A stretch of 64,000 nt of DNA from Desulfatiglandales bacterium (GTDB lineage Bacteria; Desulfobacterota; DSM-4660; Desulfatiglandales; Desulfatiglandaceae). The translations under genes were made by a program, and so were the position numbers. The stretch's first letter is position 1. Every line of letters starts with the position of its first letter. The stretch spans positions 1,696,001 to 1,760,000 of the forward strand of contig OY762721.1 in NCBI GenBank assembly GCA_963666345.1. Direction: 5' to 3'. The notes beneath the pieces are model-generated. The model did no database searches, had not been told where the DNA came from, and saw only the letters and a list, made by a program, of their open reading frames with translations. Below are positions 10,701 through 51,773 of the stretch, in pieces.

Positions 10701-11336
10701 TCAGGCCTGATCGCCTGGGAGGGGAAAAGGGCCTTCCAGGGTTTCATAGTCCCCTTCGGTGTCTATATCCCTGTCGTCGAAACCTGCAGGAGGATCCACA
10801 TGCAGGACCCGATCCTTATGTCTTTCAAAAAGGGCCCTTGCACCGGTATCTCCCTTGAGTTCCCTGAGCTCGCCGAAAAGCTCGCTGTTTATAATCACGG
10901 GATGAGATCTCCTCCCCCCTGACCACAGGGCTGCCAGAGGCAGTCGACACTCAAGGTATGCATGAAGGACTTTGTTGATAGCCGTTGATCCGACGTGAGG
11001 CATGTCTGCAAGCAGAATCATCAGGTGGGAGAAGCGGCCCTCCATTCTGCCGAGGCCCGCCTGGATGGAGGTGCTCATACCTTTACGGTAATCGGGATTT
11101 TCAATCACTTCCAGCCGGGGATCATAGAGATATCGTGAGACAACCGGCAGGAGAAGATTTTTCTCATGGCCGAGGACCAGCCCTACCCTGTTAAGGTCGG
11201 AACCGAGGGCCTCTTTGAGGGCCTTTTCAAGAAGGGTTCGGCCCCCTATTGGAAGCAGTTGTTTGACTCTTCCCATCCTTGTCGAGGCACCTGCCGCAAG
11301 AAGCAGTCCCGCCGCATTTTCTTTCTGCCTGCCCAT
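10701..11336 (-). CDS. mocA: Nucleotidyltransferase, molybdenum cofactor cytidylyltransferase (MocA-like)
   Basis: LLAAGASTRMGRVKQLL, GMSTSI, LADMP, GDTGAR and DIDT motifs of the NTP_transf_3 MocA subgroup. Confidence 0.8.
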   Translation of the reverse strand: MGRQKENAAGLLLAAGASTRMGRVKQLLPIGGRTLLEKALKEALGSDLNRVGLVLGHEKNLLLPVVSRYLYDPRLEVIENPDYRKGMSTSIQAGLGRMEGRFSHLMILLADMPHVGSTAINKVLHAYLECRLPLAALWSGGRRSHPVIINSELFGELRELKGDTGARALFERHKDRVLHVDPPAGFDDRDIDTEGDYETLEGPFPLPGDQA

Positions 11337-11343
11337 GGTCGGA

Positions 11344-11916
11344 CTAAACCGTCTCCAATTCCTTTGCTCCATGTCTAAGGCCGGCTTCAAAAACCTTCAG
11401 ATTCACGGACCTGAATCTGTCGGGACTGACCTGATCTATGGTCGCCTTAAACTCACCAGGGGCGAAGATCGAATTTTCAAAGGCGGAAAAATATCCAAGC
11501 ATGGCGAGATTGGAAGACATGGGCGCACCCAGCTCCATCGCGATCTTTCCCGCAGGCAGGCACCTGTGTCTTATCCCCATTTTATCAAGATAGGCTATTA
11601 CCATGGGACGCGGAAAAACACCCGGTTCGGCATTCACATACATCCCGCCGCCTGAAGCAAGATAGGGCAGATTACGATAGGCCTCGTTTTCCTCAAGCGC
11701 AAGCAGATAATCCGCAGACCCGGTCCTGATAAGACTGCTGTTTACTTTGCCCAGCCTCAGATGTGATACGACGGAACCTCCCCGCTGGGCCATGCCGTGT
11801 GTCTCGGCACCCATTATGTCCAGCCCCTTATTCAGTGCCGCATTTGCAACGATCTTGGTCATAAACAATATCCCCTGTCCTCCAAGACCACTCAACAGGA
11901 AATCGGCCTTTTCCAT
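11344..11916 (-). CDS. iorB: Indolepyruvate:ferredoxin oxidoreductase subunit beta
   Basis: GLGGQG and ETHGMAQRGGSVVSH motifs; directly downstream of iorA. Confidence 0.9.
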   Translation of the reverse strand: MEKADFLLSGLGGQGILFMTKIVANAALNKGLDIMGAETHGMAQRGGSVVSHLRLGKVNSSLIRTGSADYLLALEENEAYRNLPYLASGGGMYVNAEPGVFPRPMVIAYLDKMGIRHRCLPAGKIAMELGAPMSSNLAMLGYFSAFENSIFAPGEFKATIDQVSPDRFRSVNLKVFEAGLRHGAKELETV

Positions 11917-11960
11917 GCCCCCCCTCTCCTTCCGGCTCCACGAGTTTCTTATGTCACAGG

Positions 11961-13820
11961 CTATGCCTCTACAATAGCGCCTTTCGGACACACCTCGAGA
12001 CAGACCCCGCAGCCGATGCAAAGCGCCTGGCTGACTGCCGTCCTTTCCAGTTTATCATCCCTGTAAAGGGCCGGACATTCAAATCTGTCAAGACATATGC
12101 TGCAGTCCACGCAGTCATCGGTTATTATAACTTTTTTCCTGACCGGTACGGCCTTTTCCCTGTAGGCGATTACACAGGGGTGACGGGCTATAACCACCGC
12201 GATCCCCCCCTCAGGGTCATCCGTGTAGGCGACCGCCTTCTTCAGGACCTCCATGGTTTTCTTCACATCATAGGGATCAACCACCTCCACAAAGTCGATC
12301 CCGCAGCCGGTTGCCGCCCTTTCAAGGGATATACTCCTTCCTTTACTCCCATCGGCCCTGATCCCCAGCCCCGGAGTGGGCTGCATTCCCGTCATGGCTG
12401 TCGTCATGTTATCGAGAATCACCAGCACGAACCGTGAATCGTTATATACCGCGTTTAAAAGCCCTGCCGTGCCTGAGTGGAAAAAAGTCGAATCCCCTAT
12501 TGTGGCCACGATAGGCTGTTTTACATTATCCTGTTCAAAGGCATGATAGAACCCTGACGCCATTGTTATGGCACCCCCCATATCCAGGCAGGTGTCCACC
12601 CCGCCCAGGTTTAGGCCCAGGGTGTAGCATCCTATGTCGGAGGTGAATATGGCCTTTGGCCTTACCTTTCTTATCGCGTAGAATGCCGCTCTGTGAGGAC
12701 ATCCGGGGCACAGAGTCGGTTTTCTTACAGGCAGGTCCAGCTTCTGCACCAGCTCGATCGGCTCCCTGTCCTCGGTCCCGGAAAACGGCTTTAGACCTGT
12801 TTCCTGAAGCACCACATCTACTATGGAATAGATGACCTGCGGCACGAGTTCTCCCTCGGAAGGCACATGCCCGGAGAGTCTTCCAAGCACCTTTTCCCTG
12901 TCGCGCAGGAAATACTCTATAACCGAGTCCGTCTCTTCAAGTACAAGCACCCTGGCACACTTAGACATGAACCGTCCCGCCAACCCTTCCGGAAAGGGGA
13001 AAGGGGTCCCGAGTTTCAGCAGCGGGATATCCTTTCGTCCCTCTTCGATCAGGATGTCGGAGATAACCGAATAGGGCACCCCGCCTGCGACTATGCCCAG
13101 AGGGTAATTTTTTCCGTCTTCCAGATTATGGAAGTTTATTTCACTGAGCTGATCGAATCTTTCTCCTATGCTTTTGAGTTTCAGGTTGAGTTCCCTGTGC
13201 AGTTTGAGGCGAAAACGCGGAGTAGCGGCCCATCTGGAGGGATCTTTTTCAAAAGAGGCGTTTTTCATGTTGCTCACCAGTTCGCCTCTGACAAGATTCT
13301 GTCTGGCATGACAGACCCTTATTGCGGGCCTCAGGATGACCGGGACAAGAAATTCTTCCGATATCTCCATGGCCAGTCGTGCCATTTTCCTTGCCTCTTG
13401 CGGAGTGGAGGGATCCATTACAGGGACCTTTGCAAGCCTTGCCATAAGCCTGGTATCCTGTTCGGTCTGCGAGGAATGCGGCCCCGGGTCGTCACACGAT
13501 ATTATGACAAAGCCTGCGGAGGTTCCCATATAGGCGGCGCTCATGAGAGAGTCTGAAGCCACATTCAAGCCCACCTGTTTCATGCAGCATGCTGCCCGCT
13601 TGCCTGAAACAGCGGCTGCAAAGGCGTTGTCGAGTGCGACCTTCTCATTGGTGGACCATTCCACATAGGTATTGAGCCCCTCTGATTTTACGAGCCGGAC
13701 GACCTCCGGAAGGATCTCTGAACTGGGTGTTCCGGGATAAGAGGTGACTACCTGACAACCGGACTCCACAAGACCCAGTGCAACAGCCCCGTTTCCTAAA
13801 TAAATCTCCTCAATGCTCAT
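11961..13820 (-). CDS. iorA: Indolepyruvate:ferredoxin oxidoreductase subunit alpha
   Basis: YPGTPSSE, MKQVGLNVA, DDPGPHSSQTEQD, LCPGCPH, DIGCYTLG, TPP motif GDSTFFHSG and two C-terminal 4Fe-4S motifs. Confidence 0.92.
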   Translation of the reverse strand: MSIEEIYLGNGAVALGLVESGCQVVTSYPGTPSSEILPEVVRLVKSEGLNTYVEWSTNEKVALDNAFAAAVSGKRAACCMKQVGLNVASDSLMSAAYMGTSAGFVIISCDDPGPHSSQTEQDTRLMARLAKVPVMDPSTPQEARKMARLAMEISEEFLVPVILRPAIRVCHARQNLVRGELVSNMKNASFEKDPSRWAATPRFRLKLHRELNLKLKSIGERFDQLSEINFHNLEDGKNYPLGIVAGGVPYSVISDILIEEGRKDIPLLKLGTPFPFPEGLAGRFMSKCARVLVLEETDSVIEYFLRDREKVLGRLSGHVPSEGELVPQVIYSIVDVVLQETGLKPFSGTEDREPIELVQKLDLPVRKPTLCPGCPHRAAFYAIRKVRPKAIFTSDIGCYTLGLNLGGVDTCLDMGGAITMASGFYHAFEQDNVKQPIVATIGDSTFFHSGTAGLLNAVYNDSRFVLVILDNMTTAMTGMQPTPGLGIRADGSKGRSISLERAATGCGIDFVEVVDPYDVKKTMEVLKKAVAYTDDPEGGIAVVIARHPCVIAYREKAVPVRKKVIITDDCVDCSICLDRFECPALYRDDKLERTAVSQALCIGCGVCLEVCPKGAIVEA

Positions 13821-14098
13821 TATTCCCCCTTTATCCTCTCCTTGGCCTGTTCGATCAAATCCATAAGTGAGTGCACCTTTGTCTTGGAAGGCCTTGTAAA
13901 GGCCTTTTCCCACTGCTCCCGGTCCAGCATGTCACTCAGATAGTCCTCTACCTGAAAGTGGGTATGCCAGCAGTCAAGGGTCTTGAAACAGGGCAGTCCG
14001 CTGTTTTCCCTCAAGCAGTAGGAAAACTGGATCTGATGGCCCAGTCTCGGGCACCTGATCTTATAATCATCATCCGGGGGTGTAAGCTTTTTTTCCAT
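13820..14098 (-). CDS. Small Cys-rich hypothetical protein
   Basis: 92 aa with CPRLGH..YC..PC..CW; ribosome-binding site present; the stop overlaps the iorA start (TAATG). Confidence 0.75.
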   Translation of the reverse strand: MEKKLTPPDDDYKIRCPRLGHQIQFSYCLRENSGLPCFKTLDCWHTHFQVEDYLSDMLDREQWEKAFTRPSKTKVHSLMDLIEQAKERIKGE

Positions 14099-14162
14099 GG
14101 CTCCCTATTTCAACCCATAAGGCCGTATCGGCCTCATGGGTTTTCATGAATGGTGATGGTTT

Positions 14163-15539
14163 TCATCCCGTGTACTGTCTGGGTTTGGGAAGGGGTGCAA
14201 TCTCGCTGAGGGCCCTCTGGATCTCTTCCTCCGCCAGGGCGTGATCAGCCAGTTTGCCTGTAAGATATGCCTCGTAGGCAGCCATATCAACAAGGCCGTG
14301 ACCGCTCCAGTTAAAGAGTATGACCTTTTCCTTTCCCTCCTCCTTTGCCTTCAGCGCCTCACGGATCGTAACGGCAACGGCGTGATTTGTCTCAGGCGCG
14401 CTTATAAAGCCCTCGGTCCTGGCAAAGGCGATACCGGCTTCGAAGGTCTCAAGCTGCGGCACTGCCACCGGTCGAATAAGGTTATCCAGTATGAGCTGGC
14501 TGATAAGCGGGGCCATTCCATGATACCTCAGTCCGCCTGCATGTATCGGTTCGGGGACAAAACCGTGTCCCAGGGTATGCATGGGAAGGAGCGGGGTCAT
14601 CTGAACCGTATCCCCGAAATCGTATGCAAAGGGCCCCCTTGTCATGGTAGGGCATGACTCCGGCTCAACACCGATTATATCTATATCCTTGCCGTGGATC
14701 TTATCTCTTACAAATGGAAAGCAGTTTCCGGCGAAATTGCTTCCGCCTCCTGCGCAGCCTATGACGACATCAGGATAATCACCTGTAAGGGCCATCTGTT
14801 TCTGTGTTTCAAGACCGTTTATCGTCTGGTGAAGCATGACATGGTTGAGGACGCTTCCAAGCGAATACTTACTGTTTTCATCCATGACAGCTGCCTCAAC
14901 CGCCTCGCTTATGGCCATTCCGAGGCTGCCTGGTGAGTCGGGGTTCTGCTCCAGGATCGATCGCCCCGCCTTAGTCTCGGTGCTGGGGCTCGCCGTGCAG
15001 CTTGCCCCCCATGTCTCCATCATCATGCGGCGGTAGGGTTTTTGCTGATAGCTGATCTTGACCATGAAGACCTTGCACTCAAGGCCGAACATTGCGCAGC
15101 ACATGGAAAGGGCGCTTCCCCACTGGCCGGCCCCTGTCTCGGTCGTGATCCTCTTTGTCCCGGCGACCTTGTTGTAATAGGCCTGAGCAATGGCCGTATT
15201 GGGCTTGTGGCTTCCGGCAGGGCTCACCCCCTCGTTCTTGAAATAGATCCTTGCGGGGGTATCAAGATATTTCTCCAATTCATAGGCCCTGTAGAGGGGT
15301 GTAGGTCTCCAGATGGCATATTTTTCAAGTACCTCCTCCGGGATATCTATCCATCTTTCCTGGCTGACCTCCTGTTCGATCAGGTTCATCGGAAAGATGG
15401 GCGCCAAATCATCAGGACCGACCGGCTCTCCAGTACCGGGATGAAGCGGCGGCTCCATCGGTGTGGGCATATCAGCCTGGATGTTATACCACTGGCGCGG
15501 CAATTCCGACTCGGGTAAAACGATCTTCTTGGCCTTCAT
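14163..15539 (-). CDS. trpB2: TrpB2-type PLP enzyme (stand-alone tryptophan synthase beta chain 2)
   Basis: WYNIQAD N-terminus, GSHKPNTA (PLP Lys), [26 protein letters not shown] and SGHG; strong AGGAGG ribosome-binding site. Confidence 0.92.
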
Positions 15540-15832
15540 GACTCCTCCTTTCGTCCACTTAAGTTCCCGTTTCGGCACGCAGCATCCTTGCTGCGAACCA
15601 GCCTATGACCTTAAATTTTCCAGACTTGCGAAGTGCTTGACTTGCCACTGACACTTCGATAGAGCCTGGCGGCCTAAAACAAGAAAAACCCCGAGTCAGG
15701 CTGATATCATCGCGCAGGCGAACAAGAGAACGATGGAGAGTTCAAAACAGCTGTAGTAAAGGCTTCAGGAATCACTCAAACGATATGCCACCGAAAACGA
15801 AGCAAAAAAGGAACCCAAAAGAATTGAAACAA

Positions 15833-15862
15833 AGCATACTATTCTTTACCCTATAAAGTCAA
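15833..15862 (-). promoter_or_regulatory. Candidate sigma70 promoter of the trpB2-ior operon
   Basis: TTGACT-18 nt-TATGCT on the minus strand in an AT-rich stretch, about 290 nt upstream of trpB2. Confidence 0.45.
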
Positions 15863-15952
15863 ACAAGATATTAGTTAGGTATCATATATTTTTATTAGAA
15901 AACAGACGACTTTTTCTTTTAAGATAAGGAGGGCATCAAAGCACTCAAGGGC

Positions 15953-34377: not shown

Positions 34378-36360
34378 TTATATCCTTAGACCGATCCGGT
34401 AACCGTCATGGACGGCGCTTGAAAGATTCCTCGGGACAAGTGCGTCACCAACGGCAAAGAGCTCCATGCCCTCCGCCTGAACCGCCTTTTTCAATCCTTC
34501 GTTGGCCTCCCTCTCCGAGATCACTATGGTGTCGAATTTTACCGGGAAGCGGTAGCCGTCATAGGTCTTGACCGTAATCTCGCCATCTGTGATCTCTTCG
34601 ATATCACAGTCATTATAGGCCATGACCCCGTTTTGTCTGAGATAGATCATATAACGCCATTTGAAGGACGGATTGATATCAAAGCCCGCGCTCTTTTCTC
34701 TTCCCACAATGGTGACCTTCTTCCCCTCTTTTGCGAGCTTGAGCGCAACTCCTATCCCGGGTTTTCTGTTTCCCCATACCACGACCCGCTCTCCGACTTC
34801 CGCCTTGCCGCTCATCACATCCAGGACATTGACGATATTTTCCCCCTCTCCCGGAAGTTTCGGGTATACGGGGCCTGTGGCAAGCACCACGCTGTCGGGC
34901 ATCTCATCCTGTATCAGCTCTTCGGTCACCTCGGTTGCCAGGTGGAATACGACACCGTATTTTTCACACATCGTCTTCTGATACTTGACGCATGTCATCA
35001 GTTCTTCGTCGCCGTACGGGGCCTGTGATGCCTCAAGAAGGGTCCCGCCTATTTCATCTCTCTTGTCGTAGACATGGACCTCGTGTCCCCTCTGTGCGGC
35101 GACATAGGCGCATTCCAGACCGGCGGGTCCGGCTCCCACAATCATAATCTCTTTTTTGTCATCTTCTTCCACCTCTTTCGGGTAGAAGCCGTCATCATGC
35201 TCATGGGCGCAAAGAGGGTTTATGTAACAGGTCATCGGCGCATCACGGAACAATCTGGCAAGGCAAAGATTACAGGCAACGCAGTGCCTGATCTCTTCTT
35301 CCCTGCCCTCCAGAACCTTTTTGGGCATGTAAGGATCGGCTATCATCGGACGGCACATCTCCCAGAAATCCAGTTCACCGTCTCCTATCGCCTTATCAGG
35401 CCGATCAGGCGTAAAGAGACGATATGCCATCTGGACCGGCACCTTCACATGCTCCTTTGCCCTCTTTGCAAGATGGAGCCAGTTTCCCTGGGGGATATCC
35501 CTGCTTATTACCGGGTATATGGATTCCTGCCAGCCGAGGGTACAGCTTATGTAATCGGCGCCGGCCTCCTCCGCGAGCTGGTAGGTGATCATCGACTCTT
35601 CAGGCGTATTACCCCTTACGTCATCCAGCAGTTCCTCTGAACAAAGTCTTATTCCTACAGGGATATCCGGGCCGCAGGCCTCTTTTACCCCCTGAATGAT
35701 CTCTACCATGGCCTGGCACCTGCCTCTTATATCCCCGCCGTATTCATCGGTCCGCCTGTTCGTATAGCTTGAGAGAAAATTGGAGATAAGATATCCCACG
35801 ATGCCCGATATCTCCATCACGTCGAAGCCGGCCTCCACGCCTCTTCTGGCCGATTCGACATGCTGTCTGATCATCTCCTTCACCTCTGCGTTGGTCATCT
35901 CATCCATCGGCTTGAATATTCTCAGCCTTTGAGGCACTGCGGAAGGACCGTGCCCGCTGTCCACTTCGACCGCGCCGACTCTTCCGCAGTCCATAAGCTG
36001 AAATCCCGCTATGGCCCGTTCTCCATGTATGGCATCGGCCATCTTCTTGAGCCCCGGGATGAACTTGTCGTCCCAGCAGCCCGCCTGTCCCACATAACCC
36101 TGTCCCTTGCGCGGCTCATCCATATAGACTCCCTGCATGAAACAGAGTCCTCCCACGACCCCCTCGGCCCTAGACCTTATATAGGCCACATCGGCATCGG
36201 TAATAAAACCGTGATGATCGTTGAGGTTGTCTTCGGTAGCCGCATACTTGATCCTGTTAGGGACCATCAGGTTCCCCAACTCGATCGGCTTGAAAATATT
36301 AGGATACCTTTTTGCTCCCGGATACGAGGAGTAATCCCATTCAAACAATACTTTGGCCAT
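34378..36360 (-). CDS. OYE-family FMN/[4Fe-4S]/FAD oxidoreductase (dienoyl-/aryl-CoA reductase-like)
   Basis: TIM barrel (PNRI, GYLISNF, NRRTDEYGG), CVACNLC...CYINP cluster motif and GAGPAG FAD domain; 660 aa. Confidence 0.88.
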   Translation of the reverse strand: MAKVLFEWDYSSYPGAKRYPNIFKPIELGNLMVPNRIKYAATEDNLNDHHGFITDADVAYIRSRAEGVVGGLCFMQGVYMDEPRKGQGYVGQAGCWDDKFIPGLKKMADAIHGERAIAGFQLMDCGRVGAVEVDSGHGPSAVPQRLRIFKPMDEMTNAEVKEMIRQHVESARRGVEAGFDVMEISGIVGYLISNFLSSYTNRRTDEYGGDIRGRCQAMVEIIQGVKEACGPDIPVGIRLCSEELLDDVRGNTPEESMITYQLAEEAGADYISCTLGWQESIYPVISRDIPQGNWLHLAKRAKEHVKVPVQMAYRLFTPDRPDKAIGDGELDFWEMCRPMIADPYMPKKVLEGREEEIRHCVACNLCLARLFRDAPMTCYINPLCAHEHDDGFYPKEVEEDDKKEIMIVGAGPAGLECAYVAAQRGHEVHVYDKRDEIGGTLLEASQAPYGDEELMTCVKYQKTMCEKYGVVFHLATEVTEELIQDEMPDSVVLATGPVYPKLPGEGENIVNVLDVMSGKAEVGERVVVWGNRKPGIGVALKLAKEGKKVTIVGREKSAGFDINPSFKWRYMIYLRQNGVMAYNDCDIEEITDGEITVKTYDGYRFPVKFDTIVISEREANEGLKKAVQAEGMELFAVGDALVPRNLSSAVHDGYRIGLRI

Positions 36361-36432
36361 CTGTGCGTCCTCCTTTATGATTCTGTCGAGCGATATTTAT
36401 CTGCTCAAGAATAAAAACCCTTATCCCGCCTC

Positions 36433-37629
36433 TTACGGTAATCCGAATATGCTTACTGCGCTTACATGTATGCCCACGTTTCCTCCGACATTGTGAATAA
36501 GTCCCAGTTTCGGGTTTTTGAGCTGTCTTTCGGGGTTATCCACCCGTCCCTGAAGTTGTTTGTATACCTCGTAGGTCATCCTCAGACCGCTTGCCGAAAG
36601 AGGGTGCCCGAAACACTTAAGACCCCCGTCCGTATTTATAGGCTGCGCGCCCGATAAGAGATATCTGCCCGCTTCAATGTCCTCAGGCGCCTTGCCCCTC
36701 TCGCTGAAACCCAGATCCTCGATGGTTATCAGCTCGGTGGTGCTGAAGCAGTCGTGGAGTTCGGCCATGCTGATCTCTTCCCTGGGATTTTTGATGCCCG
36801 CCTCTTTGTAGGCGGCATTTGCCGCTGCAACGTTCTCCGGGAAACTCAAAAAATCAAATTCCTGCTGCATTGTCGACTGGCCGGCCCCTGTGGCAACCCC
36901 CTGCCCTTTTACCAGTATGTAGTCGTCCCTGAGTGTCTTTGCTATCTCAGGTGTAGTTACAATGGCCGCTGCCCCTCCGTCACTCATGCCGCACGCGTCA
37001 TATAGGGTGTAGGGCCATGATATGATTCTGGCCTTAAGCACGTCTTCCACGGTTATCTTTCGGTGCAGATGCGCCTTGGGGGTCAGAAGCCCGTTGTCGT
37101 GGTTCTTGACGTTTATGATTGCAAGCATCTTTTTGAATCCTTCGAAATCCCAGTTATAATCATCCTTGTAATGATAAAAATATCTGGTCCCGTACTGCCC
37201 GAACTGGCTCGCGGGCGGGATGTCCCATTCGGTCATACCCCTGTCAAGAGGCTCCTGGATGAACAGACCGAACCCGCCGTGATGATCCTTTGTCTTTTCA
37301 ACTCCGCATGCCAGTACGATATCAAAGACACCTGAAGCGACTCCGTAGCAGGCGTTTCTTAGGACATCCTGACCGCCCGCGCAAAAATTCTCCACCCTTG
37401 ACACGGGGATATATTGCGTCTTGAGGGCCCTGGCAAGATGCGCGCCGGTAAAACCGGACTCCCTGCTCGCATACCATGCCGCCTGAATGTCCTTAGGTTC
37501 GATTCCAGCATCCTCTATGGCCTCGTAGCATGAATCCACTACCAGGTCTTCTATCCCTTTATCCCACAGTTCACCGAACTTCGTGCAACCCATGCCGACG
37601 ATAGCTACCTTGTCTCTGATGCTTCCCAT
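36433..37629 (-). CDS. SCP2/BbsB-type thiolase (IaaA-like)
   Basis: VENFCAGG, ELHDCF and GGLKCFGHP motifs. Confidence 0.88.
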   Translation of the reverse strand: MGSIRDKVAIVGMGCTKFGELWDKGIEDLVVDSCYEAIEDAGIEPKDIQAAWYASRESGFTGAHLARALKTQYIPVSRVENFCAGGQDVLRNACYGVASGVFDIVLACGVEKTKDHHGGFGLFIQEPLDRGMTEWDIPPASQFGQYGTRYFYHYKDDYNWDFEGFKKMLAIINVKNHDNGLLTPKAHLHRKITVEDVLKARIISWPYTLYDACGMSDGGAAAIVTTPEIAKTLRDDYILVKGQGVATGAGQSTMQQEFDFLSFPENVAAANAAYKEAGIKNPREEISMAELHDCFSTTELITIEDLGFSERGKAPEDIEAGRYLLSGAQPINTDGGLKCFGHPLSASGLRMTYEVYKQLQGRVDNPERQLKNPKLGLIHNVGGNVGIHVSAVSIFGLP

Positions 37630-37671
37630 TTTGAGCTCCCGGCCCTGAAGGGCCCATGTTTTATGTTTTCA

Positions 37672-39087
37672 TCATCTCACAGGTTTCGATTCCCAGAAAT
37701 ATGTGCAGACCCCTTCACGGTCCGTTATCTCATCCCAGGGGGAGTATCTCCTGAAGGTCATCTCCACCGGCATGCCGACAGTTATGTTTTCACTGTCCGC
37801 CTCCGTCATATAACTCTGGATCCTTCCTCCCCCCTCGAAATCGACCTCGGTTGTAACTACAGGTATCTCAGCTCTGGGAGTAATATAATCCAGGTTATAG
37901 GTGAAGATCCTGCCCTTCCTGCCTATGAAGCTGTATTGCTCCATGCAATCTCTTTCACGGCATTTGGTGCAGACACGCTGCGGGGGATACTGAACATACC
38001 CGCATGACAGGCACCTTGAACCATGAAGGCTGACGGTTCGATCGTATTCCCTTTTCGCCGCAACCGCCGAGTATGCCGCGTGAGGCCCGGCCGCCTTTTC
38101 AATGGGGATTATGCCTCTCCACCTGAGATACCTCATGTAATCGTCGACCACCCTCCTGGAACCGCTGTGCCCTCCGATCCCCATGCTGTTTTCTCTTGCC
38201 TTTTCAATATTGCCGTTAACCTTGAAAGCGAATGCATCCGCGCCGTTTCCGTAACCCGCACAGAGTATAAGTTCCCCTTTTGATGATTGCTCAAGGGCCG
38301 CGACCAGCCCCATGAGCACGGAAGCGGCCCCTGTATCGCCTATAGAGTCTATAAGGGGGTCCTGGAGCTGTTTTTCGACGTCAAAGCCGAGGGATTTTGA
38401 GAGCTTGACACCTCGTCTGCCGTCCGGGCTGTAAAGACAGACACGGTCAAAATCATCCGGCTTGAATCCGTATCTCTCCATCAATCCCCTTATCGCCTTG
38501 CCCATGGACGGCAGATAGCCCTGTTCAACGGCGAAACGGCTCTCCCAGCTTCTCACGTATCGATCATGGTGGCTTCTCCATACATCTATTATCTCGTTGT
38601 ATACATGGAAACTTCCTTCAAGGGTCACGGCCGCATCCTTGTCTCCCAATAATATCGCGGCAGCGCCGTCTCCCAGGTTTTTTTCCTCCATTGATCCCGG
38701 GTGACCCAGCCTGCAGTCCGAGGCCACCACCATGGCGGATCTCGTTGAGCCTGCCATGACGCTGTCAAAACCCGCCTTGAGGGCCGCGGTACCGGCGCGC
38801 AGGCAGTTGCCGAATTCGGCGGTGTAGGTCTGCTCCCTGAAGTCGGAGGCCATGGCAATGGTGGTAGCCGATGAATGTTCCCTGTACGGGGCTGAAGTCG
38901 TGCCGAAATAGATCGCTTCAACACTATTTCGGTCCCTTCCCTTGAGACAGTCACTGACCGCCTCCACCGCCATCGTTACGCTGTCTTCGTCAAAGCTGCA
39001 GATCGCTTTTTCTCCCCTGCCGCCTATGACTTTCCTGTCCAGTCTGAAAAGCGGGACATATGCGCCGAATGATGTAATTCCGACCAT
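37672..39087 (-). CDS. HMG-CoA-synthase-like domain fused to a DUF35 Zn-ribbon/OB fold (thiolase partner)
   Basis: DEDSVTMA, GDGAAA, IGDTGAA and YGNGAD, then CLSC..PPQRVCTKC and GMPVEMTFRR. Confidence 0.85.
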   Translation of the reverse strand: MVGITSFGAYVPLFRLDRKVIGGRGEKAICSFDEDSVTMAVEAVSDCLKGRDRNSVEAIYFGTTSAPYREHSSATTIAMASDFREQTYTAEFGNCLRAGTAALKAGFDSVMAGSTRSAMVVASDCRLGHPGSMEEKNLGDGAAAILLGDKDAAVTLEGSFHVYNEIIDVWRSHHDRYVRSWESRFAVEQGYLPSMGKAIRGLMERYGFKPDDFDRVCLYSPDGRRGVKLSKSLGFDVEKQLQDPLIDSIGDTGAASVLMGLVAALEQSSKGELILCAGYGNGADAFAFKVNGNIEKARENSMGIGGHSGSRRVVDDYMRYLRWRGIIPIEKAAGPHAAYSAVAAKREYDRTVSLHGSRCLSCGYVQYPPQRVCTKCRERDCMEQYSFIGRKGRIFTYNLDYITPRAEIPVVTTEVDFEGGGRIQSYMTEADSENITVGMPVEMTFRRYSPWDEITDREGVCTYFWESKPVR

Positions 39088-39096
39088 GTGGTACTC

Positions 39097-41118
39097 CTAT
39101 TTTGTGTATTTCGGTTTCCGCTTCTCCAGAAAGGCCGTGATTCCCTCTCTGGCTGCATCGGTGCAGGCAATCTCCCCAAAGCCCCGGTATCCTATTTCAA
39201 GCGCATCCCCGAAGTTTTCCGCGGCGGCGCCCTCTTTTATGGTCTTGACCGCTATTTGAACCGCTTCATTGCTGAGTGAAAGCCTTCCCGCCTTCGGTTC
39301 CGCCGGGACTGCGATTTCCGGTATATCCACCTTCCCTTCCCGGATCACTTCGACCTTTCCCTCCAGTTCCTTTACCTCTTCGACGGCGGCCATGATATTG
39401 CTGCGGTAATCCTCCGTAATTGTCCTAACCATCCCGATTTGCCTTGCATCCTCGACTTTGATCGATTTTCCAAGGGTTATCATCTCATGAAACAGCCCGG
39501 CGCCTTCCGGCCACTTTCTATAGGGTACGATACAGCCTCCGATGCCCGGAATTATCCCCAGGGTGATTTCAGGGAACTGGAATCTTGCGTTTTTCGTCGC
39601 CGTCATGCCGTGGCACCTTATCGCGACCTCAAGCCCGCCTCCCAGGGCAAGCCCGTTTATGGCGGCGACAACCGGTTTTTTCATGCGGTCCATATGGAGC
39701 TGTACCTTGGCGCACGCCCTGGAGTATTCGATTGACGCGTCGGCGTCTCCCAGCATTTCGGGAAATTTTCCTATATCGGCCCCCGCGGAAAAGGCGCTGT
39801 TTCCGTAGCCTGTAATTACGAATCCCTTTACCTTGGGATCTTCTTCGTAAAGTTTCAATGCGGAGAGGATCTCCTCTGTTATCTCGTCGTTCAAGGCGTT
39901 CATGGCCTGCGGCCTTCTTATGGTAATGACCTTTACCCCTTCGATCTCATCGACAAGAATATGCCGAAAAAAATCCTGATAAGCATCAACGGGTTGTTTT
40001 GCCTCAGGAAAACCCGCTCTTTGACTTTTAAACAGGCCCATTACCTTTTTCACTTCTCCTTCACCCAGATCTTTCATGATGTCAAAGGGGCCCTTTTTAA
40101 ACCCGAGCGCTATCTGGCATCCCATGTTGAGATCCGCATTTGTGCCTATTCCCCTGTCAATGATATCAAAGGATTGTGAAAATAGTATTCCCAGCATTCT
40201 GTTTCTTACAAAGGATGCCGTCTCATCCGGGACCTCCACCTTTGCGCCGGGACGATGGGTCAGCCATTTTTTAACGGACCCAAGGATGCCCGCGGGTTTG
40301 TAATGTGCACTCTCCTCCATCTGAAGTGAATTCGTCTCTATGATTATGGGGTTACCGTTGGCCATGTTCAGAACGAAGAAGGGGCCGGCAAAAACGAACT
40401 CCTCAGCGACCTTGTCTATCTGAGAGGCGGTGGCCCTTTCAAGAAGGTAAGCGGCCTCGTTACACCAGTTATCGAATACGCGGTCCAGCATGAAACATAT
40501 TGCGTTGTCCGTAATAAGAGGGACCTTCCCCGTCTGTGCGAAAAACCAGAAAAGGTAATCCATAACCTCTTTGCTTACCCTCTCCCAGCTTATTACCTCA
40601 ACCGGAAGACTTCGCCATGCTGGAGCGAAAAAATGCGTCACGGTTGTTCTTTCCTGCCTTTTCATATTGCAGAAGATCCTGTCGGCGGGTATTGAACTCG
40701 TGTTTGACGTGATGATAGTCTTCTCACTTACTATTCCTTCGATAGTCTCAAATATTTTCCGCTTCAGGGCGATGTTTTCCGTAGCAGCCTCTATGACAAG
40801 CTCGCAGTCCTTCAATCGCTCGTAATCTGTCGTGTACACTATGTTTTCCAGAACCGCGTCGGCCTTTTCCTGCTTCATCTTTCCCTTGTCAAGCGCCTTT
40901 GCGACATACCCCGAAAACCTTTCCCGAGCCTTTTTAAGGGGCTCCTCGACTATGTCGACGACATACAGGGTAGTTGCCGGAAGGGCGCTTTTGAGATAAT
41001 AACCGATATCCGGTCCGATCGTACCGGCTCCCACCACCGCCACTTCCCCGGGCAGGGCAAAAGGTTCGACCAGAAGGGGGTTATGATATGAATGGTACAG
41101 GCTCTTTGCTTGATCCAT
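39097..41118 (-). CDS. 3-hydroxyacyl-CoA dehydrogenase / enoyl-CoA hydratase fusion (IaaP-like)
   Basis: GAGTIG, EAATE, SNTSS and HFF in the N-terminal half; FSAGADI, GGGLE and PEITLGIIPG in the C-terminal half. Confidence 0.9.
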   Translation of the reverse strand: MDQAKSLYHSYHNPLLVEPFALPGEVAVVGAGTIGPDIGYYLKSALPATTLYVVDIVEEPLKKARERFSGYVAKALDKGKMKQEKADAVLENIVYTTDYERLKDCELVIEAATENIALKRKIFETIEGIVSEKTIITSNTSSIPADRIFCNMKRQERTTVTHFFAPAWRSLPVEVISWERVSKEVMDYLFWFFAQTGKVPLITDNAICFMLDRVFDNWCNEAAYLLERATASQIDKVAEEFVFAGPFFVLNMANGNPIIIETNSLQMEESAHYKPAGILGSVKKWLTHRPGAKVEVPDETASFVRNRMLGILFSQSFDIIDRGIGTNADLNMGCQIALGFKKGPFDIMKDLGEGEVKKVMGLFKSQRAGFPEAKQPVDAYQDFFRHILVDEIEGVKVITIRRPQAMNALNDEITEEILSALKLYEEDPKVKGFVITGYGNSAFSAGADIGKFPEMLGDADASIEYSRACAKVQLHMDRMKKPVVAAINGLALGGGLEVAIRCHGMTATKNARFQFPEITLGIIPGIGGCIVPYRKWPEGAGLFHEMITLGKSIKVEDARQIGMVRTITEDYRSNIMAAVEEVKELEGKVEVIREGKVDIPEIAVPAEPKAGRLSLSNEAVQIAVKTIKEGAAAENFGDALEIGYRGFGEIACTDAAREGITAFLEKRKPKYTK

Positions 41119-41254
41119 TTGTAATCTCCCGTTGATGATTGGAATCTTTCAATCTACCTGTTGTGGAAACTCATCCCTTGAAAAACCGGTATACAGTACA
41201 CAAGGAACAAATATCAAAAAAAGAGGCACCGATGACCCGCTGCCTTCCCTGGCA

Positions 41255-42982
41255 CTATATATTTGCCTTTAAAGAATCCCTGTTTCTTACGGTTGATTCA
41301 AATTCCAGATCGACTCCGCCGTCATCAAAAACCGCTCCATATTCAGACACGGCTTTCTCAACGCTCACGTATCCGTCGTAGATATCCTCCTGAAGCGATT
41401 CCAGTTCCCGCTCGAGGGGGTCTCCGAATCCTCCGCCACCGGCCGCATCCATTACGATTTCGTCACCCGGGCTCAGTTGAGTGAGCCCGTAAGGGTTTCC
41501 CCGGCCGCCGTTTACGAGGAATTGCGCCTTTGTCCCGTCTTTTCCTCCAAAGAGCCCCTCCGGCGGATATCGGTACCTTCCCGACTGAATGCCCAGGTTG
41601 ACCGGCGGTCTGGGCGCGTACTCGTCATCAGGTACTTCGATAACGACTCTTCTTCCAAGTCCGCCTTTCATCTTCCCCGGCCCTCCTGAATCTGTAATCA
41701 CGGACCGCTCCTTTATGATAAGCGGAGTGTCGCTTTCAAAAATCTCTACCGGGGTATTTGCACCGTTTGCGGGGAAAATAAAGTCATAGTAACCGTCATT
41801 TGATGAGCTGGCCCCCATGCCCCCGCCCCTTATTATGACGGAGTGCCAGGGGCTTCCCTCGCCTCTTTTCCCGTAAAACACATTCATGGTCGCGGGCGTG
41901 CCGCCGCTTCCGGCAATCACCCTGTCCGGTAAGGCCTTGGCCATTGCCCTGTAGATTATCTCGGTCATAAAATGGCCGATCTGCATGCGTGCGGCTACGG
42001 CAGCCGGAAACCTGCAGTTTACCACACTTCCCTCGGGGGCCTTCAGGCTGATGGGAGATGCGCAACCGTCGTTGTTGGGTATTTCAGGATCGAACATGCT
42101 CTTCATTGCCATAAACACATAGGCATAGGTAAAGTTGTACACCACGTTTCCGCCCCATTCTACCTGGCCCGAGGAACCTGCCAGATCCACCGTGATGTCG
42201 CTGCCTTTGACCTCGACCGCCACATGTATCTCTACATCCTCCTTCCCTTCCATCTGCTCCACAATGCCTTTTGCCCTGTATATGCCGTCCGGGACCTTGG
42301 AAATGGCCTCCCGCATGCTCTTCTCTGTCCTGTCTATAATCTCGTCGGCTATCTCATCAAGGCCGTCCATTTTATAATCATCGAGCATCTGCTTTATCTT
42401 TTCGGCACACACGTGATTTGCCGCAATCTGGCTCCTTATGTCGCCCGTTACCTCATCGGGTGTTCTCACGTTCCATCTTATCATTTCCATTACCGCTTCA
42501 TTCAGTATCCCTGCCTCATAGAGCTTTACAAAGGGGATAAAAAGGCCGTCTTCAAACACGTCATGATTGTCCGAGGAAACCCTGCCTCCTATGTCGGAAT
42601 GATGAAACACACAGGCGGTAAAAGCGGTCAGCTTTCCCTTGTAGAAGATGGGACTCATTACGCATACATCGTTGAGATGCCCGGCCAGCGCCCATGGGTC
42701 GTTCGTGATGAACACGTCGCCGTCTTTGCACTGTCCGGGGGACAGATTATTCACGAGGTTTTTTATGCCCAGGGCCATCGCCCCGGACTGGCCGGGTGTG
42801 GCGAAGCTGCCCTGCGCCAGTTCTCTTCCCCTCCTATCGGTAAACATGCAGGTATAGTCATGGGCATCCCTTAAAAGGCTCGAAAATGCGGTTCTGGCTA
42901 CAGATCCGTCCGCTTCGTCTACCACGGAAATCAATCTTCTCCAAAGGATTTCCAATGTTATGGGATCAAAGGTCAGACCCAT
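41255..42982 (-). CDS. Hydantoinase B/oxoprolinase subunit (Iaa hydantoinase-like)
   Basis: RTAFS, NDPW..GHLND, HHSDIGG, NTPVE, DSGGPG and GGGGFGDP. Confidence 0.9.
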   Translation of the reverse strand: MGLTFDPITLEILWRRLISVVDEADGSVARTAFSSLLRDAHDYTCMFTDRRGRELAQGSFATPGQSGAMALGIKNLVNNLSPGQCKDGDVFITNDPWALAGHLNDVCVMSPIFYKGKLTAFTACVFHHSDIGGRVSSDNHDVFEDGLFIPFVKLYEAGILNEAVMEMIRWNVRTPDEVTGDIRSQIAANHVCAEKIKQMLDDYKMDGLDEIADEIIDRTEKSMREAISKVPDGIYRAKGIVEQMEGKEDVEIHVAVEVKGSDITVDLAGSSGQVEWGGNVVYNFTYAYVFMAMKSMFDPEIPNNDGCASPISLKAPEGSVVNCRFPAAVAARMQIGHFMTEIIYRAMAKALPDRVIAGSGGTPATMNVFYGKRGEGSPWHSVIIRGGGMGASSSNDGYYDFIFPANGANTPVEIFESDTPLIIKERSVITDSGGPGKMKGGLGRRVVIEVPDDEYAPRPPVNLGIQSGRYRYPPEGLFGGKDGTKAQFLVNGGRGNPYGLTQLSPGDEIVMDAAGGGGFGDPLERELESLQEDIYDGYVSVEKAVSEYGAVFDDGGVDLEFESTVRNRDSLKANI

Positions 42983-42993
42983 TTTTCCCTCCT

Positions 42994-45081
42994 CTAATTT
43001 TTTATATCAACCCAGAGAAATCCGTACCGGTCCACTGAAACATCCGCGTCTTCTCCCACTATCACGGTCGATTCACGTTCTTCTATAATAGCGGGTCCCG
43101 GAAAACAGGCGCCGGGAAACAATTTGTACCGGTCATAAACGGAAAAGGGGATGAAATCCTTGGCGATCCCGGAGTAGGCGTTTCTTTTCCCCTTGATCGC
43201 GTTTTCAAGGTTTGTTTCCGCCGCATCCAGCATGGGCAGATTAAGCAGACGCTCGGGAAGGCTTGCACGCACCTTGAAATTGATGAATTCCACCGGTGAA
43301 TCAGGGTATGTTCTTCCGTAAAGCCTTTCATAGATATCGTCAAAGCGTCTTCTTACATCCTCTTTTCTCACATCCGTGAATCTGCTTTCAGGTACGGGTA
43401 TGTTTGTCTCGGAACCCTGCCCGACAAAACGAACATCCGCTGATCTTTCGAACTTTATTCCCTCGGTCCCCGCCGTCTGGAGAGTCCTGGCGCCCTCCTG
43501 TTCCATTTCCCGGTAAATGGCTTCTATCTCCTCGAAATCCGCGTCGTTTAGGCCCGTCTTGTGGCTCCTGACCAGGTCGAAAGCCCTGGGAGCGGTAAAA
43601 AACCCGAGGGCGGAGCCTACGCCCGCGTTCGGCGGCACTATGAGCCTTGCCGCGCCCAGCTTCTTTGTAAGCCCGTAGGCGTGAACAGGTCCGGCACCTC
43701 CAAAAGCACTCACCGTTACCACCTTGGGATTCCCGCCTTTTTCAGCGATGTGGGTCTTGGCGGCCGCCGCCATTGTCTCGTTTATCAGGTCATGTATGCC
43801 CCATATCGCCTGAATCAAAGACACGCCCAGGGGCCCGGCTATTTTTTCCTCTATGCCCTTTTCCGCAGCCTCCCTGTCCAGGCTCATCTCCCCTCCCAGG
43901 AAATAGTCGGGATCAAGATAACCAAGGAGGAGATCCGCATCGGTCACGCCGGGATCTTTTCCTCCCCTGCCGTAGCAGATGGGGCCCGGGTCCGCGCCTG
44001 AACTTTCAGGACCTACCTGAAGGGTTCCCATTCTGCTCACCTTGGCTATGCTTCCCCCGCCCGCCCCTATTTCCATAAGGTCGACCACCGGAACCTGAAT
44101 GGTGAGTCCGCTTCCTTTCATGAACCGCTGAACCCTTCCCACCTCGAAGGTGGGTACCACACCGGCGCTTCCGCCCTGAATAAGGCAGGATTTCGCGGTC
44201 GTGCCTCCCATATCAAAACAGAACATCTCCGAGATATCGAAGAGTTTGCCGTAATATTCACCTGATATGACGGCTGCGGTGGGACCTGATTCAATTATCC
44301 TGACGGGAAACTCCGCGGCGGTCTCAACCGAGGTGATACCCCCGCTTGAAAGCATTATGAAAAGTTTTCCGCCCGAGCCGATATCCTCCAGCCTCTTTGA
44401 AAGTCTTGAAAGATATCTTCCGGTGAGAGGTTTTACATAGGCGTTGGTTACGGTCGTGCTGGTTCTTTCATACTCCCTGATCTGAGGCAGGACTTCGTAT
44501 GAGATAGAAACGGAAATCTGAGGCGCCTTTTTTTCGATTATCTCTTTTATCATGAACTCGTGGGCCGGGTTTTCAAAGGAGTTGAGGAGGCACACGGCTA
44601 TCGATTCGACCCCCGTTTCAAGCAGCCTTTCCACACACTCCTGCGCCTCCTCCCGGCTGAGCGCCTTGAGAACCGTGCCGTCGCTTCTGACTCTCTCATC
44701 CACTTCGAACCTGAACCTTCTGGGGATAAGAGGTTTTGGAAATTCGGCAAAGACGTCATACGGCGCGTACCGTATCTCTCTTCCAAGCTCCAGGACGTCC
44801 CTGAACCCCTTTGTCGTGATCAGGCCCGTTTTCGCCCCTTTTCTCTCAATAATTGAATTTATAACCAGGGTGGTGCCATGTATGACCTCGTCCAGTTGCG
44901 CCACAAAGCCATTACGTCGGGCCTCCAGCTCCCTGATACCCTGCTCCACGGCATCTGAAGGGTCGCTGGGAGTAGTAAGGCATTTGTTAATGGTTATCTC
45001 GCCTGTCTTATCATTCAATAATACAAAGTCTGTGAAGGTTCCTCCTATATCACAGCCAAGTCTGTAATACTTTTCAGACAT
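42994..45081 (-). CDS. Hydantoinase A/oxoprolinase ATP-binding subunit (Iaa hydantoinase-like)
   Basis: DIGGTFTD, HGTT, EYERTST, DMGGTT, IGAGGGS and FGGAGP. Confidence 0.92.
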   Translation of the reverse strand: MSEKYYRLGCDIGGTFTDFVLLNDKTGEITINKCLTTPSDPSDAVEQGIRELEARRNGFVAQLDEVIHGTTLVINSIIERKGAKTGLITTKGFRDVLELGREIRYAPYDVFAEFPKPLIPRRFRFEVDERVRSDGTVLKALSREEAQECVERLLETGVESIAVCLLNSFENPAHEFMIKEIIEKKAPQISVSISYEVLPQIREYERTSTTVTNAYVKPLTGRYLSRLSKRLEDIGSGGKLFIMLSSGGITSVETAAEFPVRIIESGPTAAVISGEYYGKLFDISEMFCFDMGGTTAKSCLIQGGSAGVVPTFEVGRVQRFMKGSGLTIQVPVVDLMEIGAGGGSIAKVSRMGTLQVGPESSGADPGPICYGRGGKDPGVTDADLLLGYLDPDYFLGGEMSLDREAAEKGIEEKIAGPLGVSLIQAIWGIHDLINETMAAAAKTHIAEKGGNPKVVTVSAFGGAGPVHAYGLTKKLGAARLIVPPNAGVGSALGFFTAPRAFDLVRSHKTGLNDADFEEIEAIYREMEQEGARTLQTAGTEGIKFERSADVRFVGQGSETNIPVPESRFTDVRKEDVRRRFDDIYERLYGRTYPDSPVEFINFKVRASLPERLLNLPMLDAAETNLENAIKGKRNAYSGIAKDFIPFSVYDRYKLFPGACFPGPAIIEERESTVIVGEDADVSVDRYGFLWVDIKN

Positions 45082-45172
45082 AAATGCCTCCCGAATCTAC
45101 ACACTGCGAAACGCCGCATTTTAGATAGGATCTGAATGCCTCGTGAACGATAAAAAGGGTATCAACATTCAT

Positions 45173-47569: not shown

Positions 47570-47586
47570 TGCTTCCTCCTGTGGTA

Positions 47587-48069
47587 TTACTCTTTTTCCC
47601 TGCTCATTGCGGCCGCATTTTCTATCGCCTCGACTATCTGAACATATCCCGTGCATCGGCAGATATTCCCTGCGATAGCGGTCCTTATTTCATCCTCCGT
47701 GGGATCGGAGTTCTCCTTGAGTAGAGACTTGGCCGACATGATCATACCGGAAGTACAGAAACCGCACTGAACTCCGTTGTTTTCCAGAAAGGATCTCTGC
47801 AGCGGGTCAAGGGATCCATCCTGAGAAGCAAGCCCCTCAATTGTCGTGACCGATTTACCCTCAATCTCAAAAACAGGATACAGGCAGGAGTTTACCGCGT
47901 CTCCGTCTACCATGACCGTACAGGCTCCGCATTCGCCCACTCCGCAACCCTCCTTTGCCCCGGTAAGTTCGAAATACTCCCTCAGGGTTCTAAGAAGCGA
48001 CCAGGTGGCTGGAACTTCAGCGGTCACGGGATCACCGTTAAGGGTAAAAGGAATTACCAGTTTTTTCAT
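47587..48069 (-). CDS. Xanthine dehydrogenase family [2Fe-2S] small subunit
   Basis: GCGVGECGACTV, QCGFCT and NICRCTGY. Confidence 0.93.
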   Translation of the reverse strand: MKKLVIPFTLNGDPVTAEVPATWSLLRTLREYFELTGAKEGCGVGECGACTVMVDGDAVNSCLYPVFEIEGKSVTTIEGLASQDGSLDPLQRSFLENNGVQCGFCTSGMIMSAKSLLKENSDPTEDEIRTAIAGNICRCTGYVQIVEAIENAAAMSREKE

Positions 48070-48083
48070 TTCAATCTCCTTTG

Positions 48084-48956: not shown

Positions 48957-48967
48957 CTCACCACCCC

Positions 48968-50263: not shown

Positions 50264-50318
50264 GACTTCTATCTCTCCATAAGCAAAATGGTAGGTGAAC
50301 ATCAGGCGATATATTTCA

Positions 50319-50400: not shown

Positions 50401-50463
50401 TCAGCATTTTCAAAAATTTATTGATCTCAACAAAAAAAGCCATGACTTAGCGACTACCCCGGC

Positions 50464-51771: not shown

Positions 51772-51773
51772 CT

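Follow-up and report, generated by a model that had tools for sequence, protein, structure and literature searches.

In a 64,000-nucleotide stretch of the genome of a Desulfatiglandales bacterium (contig OY762721.1, positions 1,696,001 to 1,760,000; hereafter "the window"), five tightly packed genes on the minus strand (10701-15539) encode a stand-alone TrpB2-type enzyme, a small four-cysteine protein of 92 residues (hyp92), the two subunits of an indolepyruvate:ferredoxin oxidoreductase (IOR; iorA and iorB), and a MocA-like nucleotidyltransferase. In relatives of this organism, the trpB2-IOR module recurs together with, and in several cases directly beside or inside, gene clusters resembling the iaa operon for anaerobic indoleacetate degradation, and this gene context supports a functional tie between the two. 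We therefore read the operon as a peripheral module of a catabolic system for indolic compounds, in which indole would be channelled via tryptophan and indolepyruvate to indoleacetyl-CoA, and assign this reading a probability of roughly one half. The core pair trpB2-hyp92 occurs independently of iaa genes.

An earlier note, made from the letters of the window alone, had proposed the five-gene operon, and its coordinates and gene list proved correct in open reading frame (ORF) and family scans. The first gene, trpB2 (14163..15539, within an ORF spanning 14163-15578), likely starts at an ATG at position 15539, which is preceded by a strong AAAGGAGGAG ribosome-binding site. It is separated by 64 nt from hyp92 (13820..14098), whose stop codon is overlapped by the ATG of iorA (11961..13820) in the sequence TAATG. 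Following a gap of 44 nt, iorB (11344..11916; start set at M36 of the ORF) is succeeded by the mocA-like gene (10701..11336; start set at M19 of the ORF), the start of which lies 7 nt past the iorB stop. The gap to the next gene, coding for a pyruvoyl arginine decarboxylase at the head of a polyamine set, is 236 nt.

Each enzyme of the operon belongs, by its sequence, to a known family. TrpB2 passes both relevant family cut-offs (NF009057, 739.6 bits versus 366; TIGR01415, 648.5 bits versus 518.85) and reaches 148 bits on the TrpB1 model TIGR00263, for which the cut-off is 392. The closest solved chains are the TrpB2 structures 6hul_B, 4qys_B and 6hte_B (E 1e-126 to 1e-117), while TrpB1 chains are found at about 1e-35. 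In an alignment of 21 TrpB2 orthologs, S110-H111-K112 and T133-E134-T135-G136-A137-G138-Q139 are invariant; we take these stretches to be the motif of the lysine binding pyridoxal 5'-phosphate (PLP) and the ETGAGQ active-site motif of TrpB2. Among this genome and 60 relatives of the same family and order, TrpB2 orthologs (E<=1e-50) are present in 55 of 61 genomes, most of them being 72-90% identical, and in an even sample of the phylum 208 of 301 genomes contain TrpB2 (E<=1e-100). The enzyme stands without TrpA, the best trpA match of the genome amounting to 21.3 bits versus a cut-off of 102 (control 14/14). A second TrpB2 paralog, 62% identical and encoded in a 513-aa ORF with an N-terminal extension (C1:4105076-4106446; L175:8933-10474), sits after a TRAP transporter, with hyp92 not adjacent to it.

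The protein hyp92 has no Pfam or NCBIfam match in family scans. Its 21 aligned orthologs show a mean column identity of 71%, with C16, C28, C37 and C43 invariant. A profile search retrieved 1888 protein clusters; among the 120 matches listed, there was no Pfam domain, and every given name was "hypothetical protein", as were the names of all clusters found in a language-model atlas, which stem from Thermodesulfobacteriota only. The AF2 model has a pLDDT of 75, and a Foldseek comparison of this model with the PDB yielded nothing at E<=0.001. A complex prediction for TrpB2 and hyp92 gave a score of 0.08 (mark 0.32) and was used neither for nor against an interaction. As a conserved partner downstream of trpB2, hyp92 follows it in 24 of 29 loci of relatives, two of the five misses being contig ends, and trpB2 is directly upstream in 66 of the 80 loci found with hyp92, seven of the other 14 being cut by a contig end. 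In the phylum sample, hyp92 is present in 99 of 301 genomes; upon comparison of coordinates by hand, it adjoins trpB2 in 79 of them, lies within 3 kb in 2, is located elsewhere in 14, and is undecidable in 4. Thus, trpB2-hyp92 is a phylum-wide gene pair which occurs independently of iaa genes. In the literature searched, no paper on this pair was found.

IorA scores just above the cut-off of the IOR alpha model (TIGR03336, 659.2 bits versus 650.9) and contains PF02775, PF01855 and Fer4 domains, that is, thiamine pyrophosphate (TPP) domains and a tail with two [4Fe-4S] clusters. It is one of four IorA-class paralogs of the genome, the other three of which, scoring 775, 775 and 594 bits on the same model, are 35-38% identical to it; its identity to orthologs that stand beside trpB2-hyp92 or are linked to iaa genes is, in contrast, 66-90%. 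IorB carries the POR domain (PF01558, 107 bits), and all of its 13 best NCBIfam matches are IOR-beta models (126-131 bits), each under its cut-off; on TIGR03334, 126 bits were obtained where 205.8 are demanded. The nucleotidyltransferase is of the MobA type (NTP_transf_3, PF12804, 120 bits), with TIGR03310 (MocA/YgfJ) as its best family at 153.8 bits, under the cut-off of 186.45. Because IorB and MocA remain below the curated cut-offs, they are named "IOR-beta-like" and "MocA-like"; with this proviso, the gene identities given in the earlier note for trpB2, iorA, iorB and mocA hold. The product of 10701-11336 is probably a molybdenum cofactor cytidylyltransferase. The genome has no further copy of its gene and encodes two molybdenum (Mo) subunits of the xanthine dehydrogenase (XDH) family, one in the window (45173-47656) and one at genome position 949 kb, which supports the suggestion that the enzyme provides the cytosine dinucleotide cofactor to XDH-family enzymes.

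The proposed sink or source of indoleacetyl-CoA is an iaa-like catabolic cluster on the minus strand of the window (34378..61285). Starting from the low coordinate, it comprises genes for an old yellow enzyme (OYE)/FadH-like reductase, a thiolase, HMGCS-like and FadB-like proteins, hydantoinase B and A, the Mo, FeS and FAD subunits of an XDH-family enzyme, a PaaK-like CoA ligase, a TRAP transporter (including DctQ), the large and small subunits of a B12-dependent mutase, an acyl-CoA dehydrogenase, EtfAB, and, at the high end, a family-III CoA-transferase. The label "iaa-like" is based on NCBIfam family-level matches, whose functions agree with those given for the iaa operon of Aromatoleum. At its end, the cluster encodes a glyoxalase/VOC protein similar to methylmalonyl-CoA epimerase (33098-33559, minus; score below cut-off), which recurs immediately upstream of trpB2 in loci of the families f17 and f27 (L189:6218-6637; L195:5084-5593). 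Also beside the cluster (27496-32302, minus) are genes for a GltD-like NAD(P)-binding Fe-S protein and two HdrA2-like proteins; their orthologs (56-75% identical) adjoin trpB2-hyp92-iorAB in one relative (G271, L192) and the OYE gene in another locus (L086), and they may represent an electron-bifurcating partner of the pathway. For several orthologs of the Mo subunit at 45173-47656, in-frame TGA and/or TAG stops are listed within the open frame around them, e.g., in G047, G050, G053, G058 and G060.

To relate the operon to iaa genes, about 9 kb were fetched on each side of trpB2 in the 60 relatives, and a genome was scored iaa-positive when it contained an ortholog of hydantoinase A at least 74% identical or of the mutase large subunit (MutL) at least 70% identical; genomes in which a contig end prevented a decision or TrpB2 was not detected are omitted from the comparison. 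The gene iorA follows trpB2(-hyp92) in 27 genomes, 25 of which are iaa-positive, the two iaa-negative ones being 82% (G025) and 74% (G021) complete. Where the contig continues without iorA (14 genomes), 2 genomes are iaa-positive and 12 iaa-negative. The co-occurrence of operon and iaa genes that the earlier note had asked to be checked across Desulfobacterota is thus found, in these relatives, for the form containing iorAB. The same counts bear on its statement that conservation of the operon in relatives lacking iaa genes would refute the proposal: such conservation is seen for the core trpB2-hyp92(-mocA), in 12 genomes, and is confined to 2 of 27 genomes for the iorAB form.

Physical linkage is a stronger argument than co-occurrence. 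Among the 80 hyp92 loci, iorA-iorB come next in 38 and a mocA-like gene comes directly next in 14, and 11 of the loci, each of at most 20 kb, additionally contain orthologs (56-85% identical) of iaa genes of the window. In two genomes (G008, G009), the module is placed between FadB-like/PaaK-like genes and the OYE gene. In family f27 (the complete genome G081, and G335), trpB2 and a fused IOR directly abut a full iaa-like cluster, in which the hydantoinase is divergent (38-39% identical), the mutase and the ligase are 70-73% and 67-68% identical, respectively, and a mocA-like gene closes the cluster. Phylum-wide, an ortholog of the window's IorA (E<=1e-180) is present in 52 of 301 genomes and is encoded no more than 5 kb from trpB2 in 20 of them (families f1, f17, f30, f27 and f66); 16 of these 20 contain a hydantoinase-A ortholog at least 65% identical, and one genome of f66 (G157) has a mutase ortholog of 70% identity. 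The iaa hydantoinase was found in all nine sampled f17 genomes.

The architecture of these loci adds to the picture. In f17, a 1.1-kb gene between hyp92 and iorA encodes a class-I (aspartate/aromatic-type) aminotransferase in all three annotated loci, which is the step missing from the operon of the window; that no aminotransferase is encoded in the window, as had been stated before, was confirmed. In f17, f27 and f66, IorA occurs as a fusion with a GltD-like NAD(P)-binding module, and in one f17 locus NuoE/NuoF-like genes and a gene for an Fe-S protein precede this fusion, an arrangement that would fit an oxidative, electron-exporting enzyme. Several Desulfatiglandales loci have the order V4R-PAS-LuxR regulator, serA, trpB2, hyp92, iorA, iorB, serC, TetR, OYE; a V4R-PAS-LuxR regulator upstream and a TetR regulator downstream, as seen where the module is embedded among iaa genes, would be typical of substrate-induced catabolic clusters. 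The flanking serA (TIGR01327, 674 bits versus 454) and serC (TIGR01364, 458-483 bits versus 443.6) score above equivalog cut-offs, and one or both flank trpB2 in 21 of 135 related loci, with no serB among the annotated neighbours. Since SerA and SerC make O-phosphoserine, the co-substrate of TrpB2, their presence supports the co-substrate and not a direction of flux. The idea that serA beside trpB2 is a dedicated extra copy signalling high flux was rejected, given that it is the only full-length phosphoglycerate dehydrogenase in each of the five genomes tested.

Further gene sets accompany trpB2 in relatives. A second enzyme of the XDH family, which shares 34-57% identity with the Mo subunit of the window, is often found directly beside trpB2-IOR in Desulfatiglandales, f17, f27 and f66 (L067:1992-8260, L113:13820-19661, L189:1-3610; also L194, L195 and L196), and several of these loci add a saccharopine-dehydrogenase-like protein and a class-III (HemL-like) aminotransferase; the set is absent from the window and may constitute another entry module, for an indolic amine. 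A variant locus without IOR (L097, L115, L121, L122) has the order mocA-like, trpB2, hyp92, (V4R regulator), serA, second trpB2, serC, and in L097, L121 and L122 the opposite strand carries a class-I aminotransferase gene a few kilobases further downstream.

The window sits in a single contig of 4,162,108 bp without Ns (completeness 96.7%), and profile searches of this whole genome (each control detected in 14/14 reference genomes) returned no match for trpA, trpB1, trpC (indole-3-glycerol-phosphate synthase) or trpD, no chorismate-binding domain (trpE, pabB, menF) and no chorismate synthase; a 22.5-bit match of phosphoribosylanthranilate isomerase is the only weak match to the tryptophan (Trp) pathway. 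The earlier observation that trpA and other trp genes are lacking is, therefore, true not only for the window but for the entire genome, in which prephenate dehydratase is kept. Accordingly, Trp formed by TrpB2 is probably also the cell's own, and this genome's only, Trp supply. Tryptophanase was considered as an internal source of indole and discarded, the 471-aa beta-eliminating lyase of the genome (C1:3093662-3095077) being a tyrosine phenol-lyase (755 bits versus 720.7; TnaA, 496 versus 826); four PaaK-like ligase paralogs are encoded in the genome as well. Loss of aromatic amino acid synthesis recurs within the order: trpA exceeds its cut-off in 37 of the 61 genomes, and chorismate synthase does so in 42. 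No trpA was detected in 16 of the 27 iorAB-linked relatives, compared with 1 of the 14 unlinked ones.

On this basis, a linear route can be drawn up, which is the simplest reading that gives each recurrent gene a role and for which we infer the substrates, the direction of flux, the co-regulation and the part played by hyp92. TrpB2, possibly aided by hyp92, would join free indole to O-phosphoserine or serine, yielding L-tryptophan. A class-I aminotransferase, encoded in the operon in f17 and elsewhere in the present genome, would turn Trp into indole-3-pyruvate, from which IorAB would form indole-3-acetyl-CoA by oxidative decarboxylation. Indoleacetyl-CoA would then feed the iaa-like pathway encoded at 34-61 kb, whose XDH-family hydroxylase would receive the cytosine dinucleotide form of the molybdenum cofactor from the mocA-like enzyme. 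A broader proposal goes further, and we hold it with somewhat less confidence than an even chance: sulfate reducers of the Desulfobacterota would activate indole without oxygen by an unrecognised route, in which TrpB2 and an obligate hyp92 alkylate C3 with O-phosphoserine to form Trp, and a dedicated aminotransferase and a specialised IOR would lead on to the iaa pathway, so that Trp would become a catabolic intermediate and de novo synthesis of aromatic amino acids dispensable.

Transcription of the operon was approached from the upstream region and from RNA libraries. The intergenic leader (15540..15952, minus, 413 nt) contains one sigma-70-like site at 15862-15833; the promoter/terminator scan was uninformative, counting 7 promoter-like and 13 terminator-like sites where shuffles gave 5.0±2.1 and 6.9±3.0, respectively. 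Rfam gave no match at E<=0.1 between 9 and 19 kb of the window and, hence, no T-box, riboswitch or attenuator family. Co-regulation via a shared motif was rejected, because a comparison of the region upstream of trpB2 with 12 intergenic regions of iaa/hdr genes yielded one common 11-mer, a result equalled in 68 of 200 shuffles. With a similarity of 92-99%, contigs from RNA libraries of a single marine-sediment study cover trpB2, hyp92, iorA and iorB/mocA in part, one of them spanning the trpB2/hyp92 junction and one the iorB/mocA junction; they give a weak hint of operon transcription and possibly derive from relatives or from DNA carry-over, and the stretches left uncovered carry no information. 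The polyamine set directly downstream of the operon (7649-10464, minus) consists of the pyruvoyl arginine decarboxylase, a deoxyhypusine-synthase-like/homospermidine-type protein and agmatinase; the order mocA-like gene, pyruvoyl arginine decarboxylase, deoxyhypusine-synthase-like gene is also found in one related locus (L124).

A number of observations weigh against the catabolic route. In the window, about 18 kb of unrelated housekeeping genes (for GGT, TauE, PilT, PilZ, DUF711, an ACT protein, YjeF, a cold-shock protein and HdrA-like proteins) part the operon from the iaa-like cluster, and the upstream region of the operon shares no motif beyond chance with the iaa intergenic regions. The window holds neither an aminotransferase gene nor serA or serC; the genome's serA and serC are at housekeeping positions, beside ispE and asnS, and in relatives serA adjoining trpB2 is silent on flux, as it is the sole full-length copy. 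IorA is only the third-best of the genome's four paralogs on the IOR alpha model. Twelve relatives keep the core trpB2-hyp92(-mocA) while lacking iaa markers, and the pair is found throughout the phylum; evidently, TrpB2 has a role apart from iaa. Taken by itself, the co-occurrence may reflect shared ancestry: on the TrpB2 tree, the linkage and iaa labels need 9 changes versus 14.3 in shuffles, and of the 3 independent contrasts on supported branches (7 on all branches), 1.7 go the same way for iaa, 0.0 the opposite way and 1.2 show no difference (sign test, p ~0.5), a test that had no chance of reaching significance with only three contrasts. Furthermore, C2 hydroxylation to oxindole is the sole entry reaction for anaerobic indole degradation given in the portion of a review available to us (PMC6221969). 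The link between operon and iaa genes suggested in the earlier note is retained as a functional tie, backed by co-occurrence, by embedding in iaa clusters and by the f17 aminotransferase.

The absence of any other Trp route fits an anabolic role equally well. TrpB2 would then capture indole for Trp salvage, and a reversed IorAB would carboxylate indoleacetyl-CoA, delivered by the iaa ligase, to indolepyruvate, from which a general aminotransferase would form Trp; the earlier note had already mentioned this reverse reading, which has gained weight and is ranked below the catabolic one, being unlikely on balance though worth serious consideration. In methanogens, IOR is used reductively in aromatic amino acid synthesis. 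The missing trpA in most iorAB-linked relatives points the same way, as do the 72-90% identity of TrpB2 orthologs across genera, which suggests strong purifying selection, the housekeeping nature of the serA copies adjoining trpB2 (5/5 genomes), and the four IorA and four PaaK-like paralogs together with the tyrosine phenol-lyase, which would suit a cell that makes aromatic amino acids from ready-made rings. However, 11 linked relatives keep trpA, and the loss of chorismate synthase also ends the synthesis of Phe and Tyr, which a Trp-specific operon cannot explain. Moreover, the setting in catabolic iaa clusters under V4R/TetR regulators and the IorA-NAD(P) fusions favour oxidation, and as TrpB2 uses no iaa intermediate, its position inside iaa clusters would be left unexplained. 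Because IOR is reversible, salvage and the catabolic route from indole to indoleacetyl-CoA are not mutually exclusive.

Two other explanations have to be considered. The genes might share no pathway at all, TrpB2-hyp92 scavenging traces of indole, IOR acting on other aryl or branched 2-oxoacids, and MocA serving all XDH-family enzymes, with shared ancestry behind the association with iaa genes. The phylum-wide numbers (TrpB2 in 208, hyp92 in 99, but IorA within 5 kb in only 20 of 301 genomes), the existence of a trpB2-hyp92-mocA form in iaa-negative genomes, the contrast test lacking significance and the 18-kb distance in this genome are in line with this explanation, which we nevertheless regard as improbable, since the linkage recurs in varied architectures (split IorAB in f1, f2, f3, f5, f17 and f30; fused IOR in f27 and f66), the f17 aminotransferase is placed exactly between hyp92 and iorA, and the module abuts or sits within iaa clusters in f1 and f27. 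Alternatively, TrpB2-hyp92 could join phosphoserine to a nucleophile other than indole, e.g., another N-heterocycle or an aromatic amine, and the non-standard amino acid so formed would be transaminated and decarboxylated by IOR to an arylacetyl-CoA for the iaa-like enzymes. An unexplained, strictly co-located partner such as hyp92 would be accommodated thereby, as would the second XDH-family enzyme, the saccharopine-dehydrogenase-like protein and the class-III aminotransferase that often flank trpB2, and the relatives are, judging by names such as Desulfatiglans and NaphS2, aromatic-compound degraders. Yet the enzyme exceeds the TrpB2 cut-offs by a wide margin, retains the family's invariant residues, among them those presumed to form the PLP-lysine and ETGAGQ stretches, and has indole-using TrpB2 enzymes as its nearest solved structures, so that a substrate other than indole appears very improbable.

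In the literature searched, TrpB2 was nowhere linked with IOR or iaa genes; subscription work on iaa operons of strict anaerobes may bear on this point. New are, in our view, the module joining trpB2, hyp92, aminotransferase, IOR and iaa genes, the small protein hyp92, and the implied chemistry, and the recurrence of the operon beside iaa genes suggests a new oxygen-free, indole-consuming route. What is at hand is a conserved gene module, open to testing, by which indole would be fixed as Trp and handed over to a known CoA-dependent ring degradation. If this holds true, C-C bond formation with a serine-derived unit would be a new activation principle for N-heterocycles, TrpB2 enzymes would gain a physiological role past trace scavenging, hyp92, a widespread unnamed protein (1888 clusters), would receive a first context, and the loss of the tryptophan and chorismate pathways in several lineages could be explained. 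Should the flux run toward Trp, the operon would show how a degrader of aromatic compounds turns indole and auxin from its surroundings into an essential amino acid.

Compared with known systems, the module combines familiar components in an unusual way. IorAB enzymes are 2-oxoacid oxidoreductases of archaea and anaerobes, of the indolepyruvate:ferredoxin type. The enzyme of the window shares with them the two-subunit layout, the TPP and ferredoxin-type domains and an IorA just over the TIGR03336 cut-off; in contrast, its IorB stays below every curated cut-off, and its IorA forms an ortholog group of its own which is tied to trpB2-hyp92 and whose members in other families are fusions with a GltD-like NAD(P)-binding module. 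The mocA-like gene has the domain and best NCBIfam family of MocA/YgfJ, and XDH-family clients are present in the genome; unlike MocA/YgfJ, it remains under the family cut-off and is packed with trpB2 and IOR genes instead of with a molybdenum enzyme. TrpB2 is described as an indole-scavenging, O-phospho-L-serine-dependent enzyme (Hettwer & Sterner 2002 and Busch et al. 2014, as cited in the accessible part of PMC11917138). The protein of the window agrees with this type in its scores on both NCBIfam models, its nearest structures and the absence of TrpA from the genome, and differs from it by the Cys4 protein hyp92 downstream and by the links to IOR, aminotransferase, serA/serC and iaa genes across relatives.

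The iaa operon of Aromatoleum aromaticum serves anaerobic indoleacetate degradation and has been predicted in strict anaerobes including Desulfatiglans anilini (PMC8360864, seen in part). With the functions given there, the window shares the CoA ligase, the XDH-family enzyme, the hydantoinase-like pair, the B12 mutase pair, the family-III CoA-transferase and the acyl-CoA dehydrogenase, and also the extra electron-transferring flavoprotein reported for D. anilini and other strict anaerobes; trpB2, IOR, aminotransferase and serA/serC are not named in the available part of that paper, whereas they are a recurrent add-on here. Anaerobic indole degradation via oxindole, entered by C2 hydroxylation, is known from Desulfobacterium indolicum and from consortia, and no enzyme or gene for it is named in the accessible text of the review (PMC6221969). 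The substrate and the occurrence in sulfate reducers would be the same for the proposed route, and an XDH-family hydroxylase is plausible in both, but the known entry is a hydroxylation at C2, whereas the proposed one would be the formation of a C-C bond at C3 with a serine-derived C3 unit. Finally, gut Bifidobacterium salvages indole to Trp and on to indole-3-lactate, according to the part of the report available (PMC11085991); here as there, exogenous indole would first be fixed as Trp and then transaminated, but while a reduced end product is excreted by Bifidobacterium, IOR would form a CoA thioester destined for full degradation in the Desulfatiglandales bacterium.

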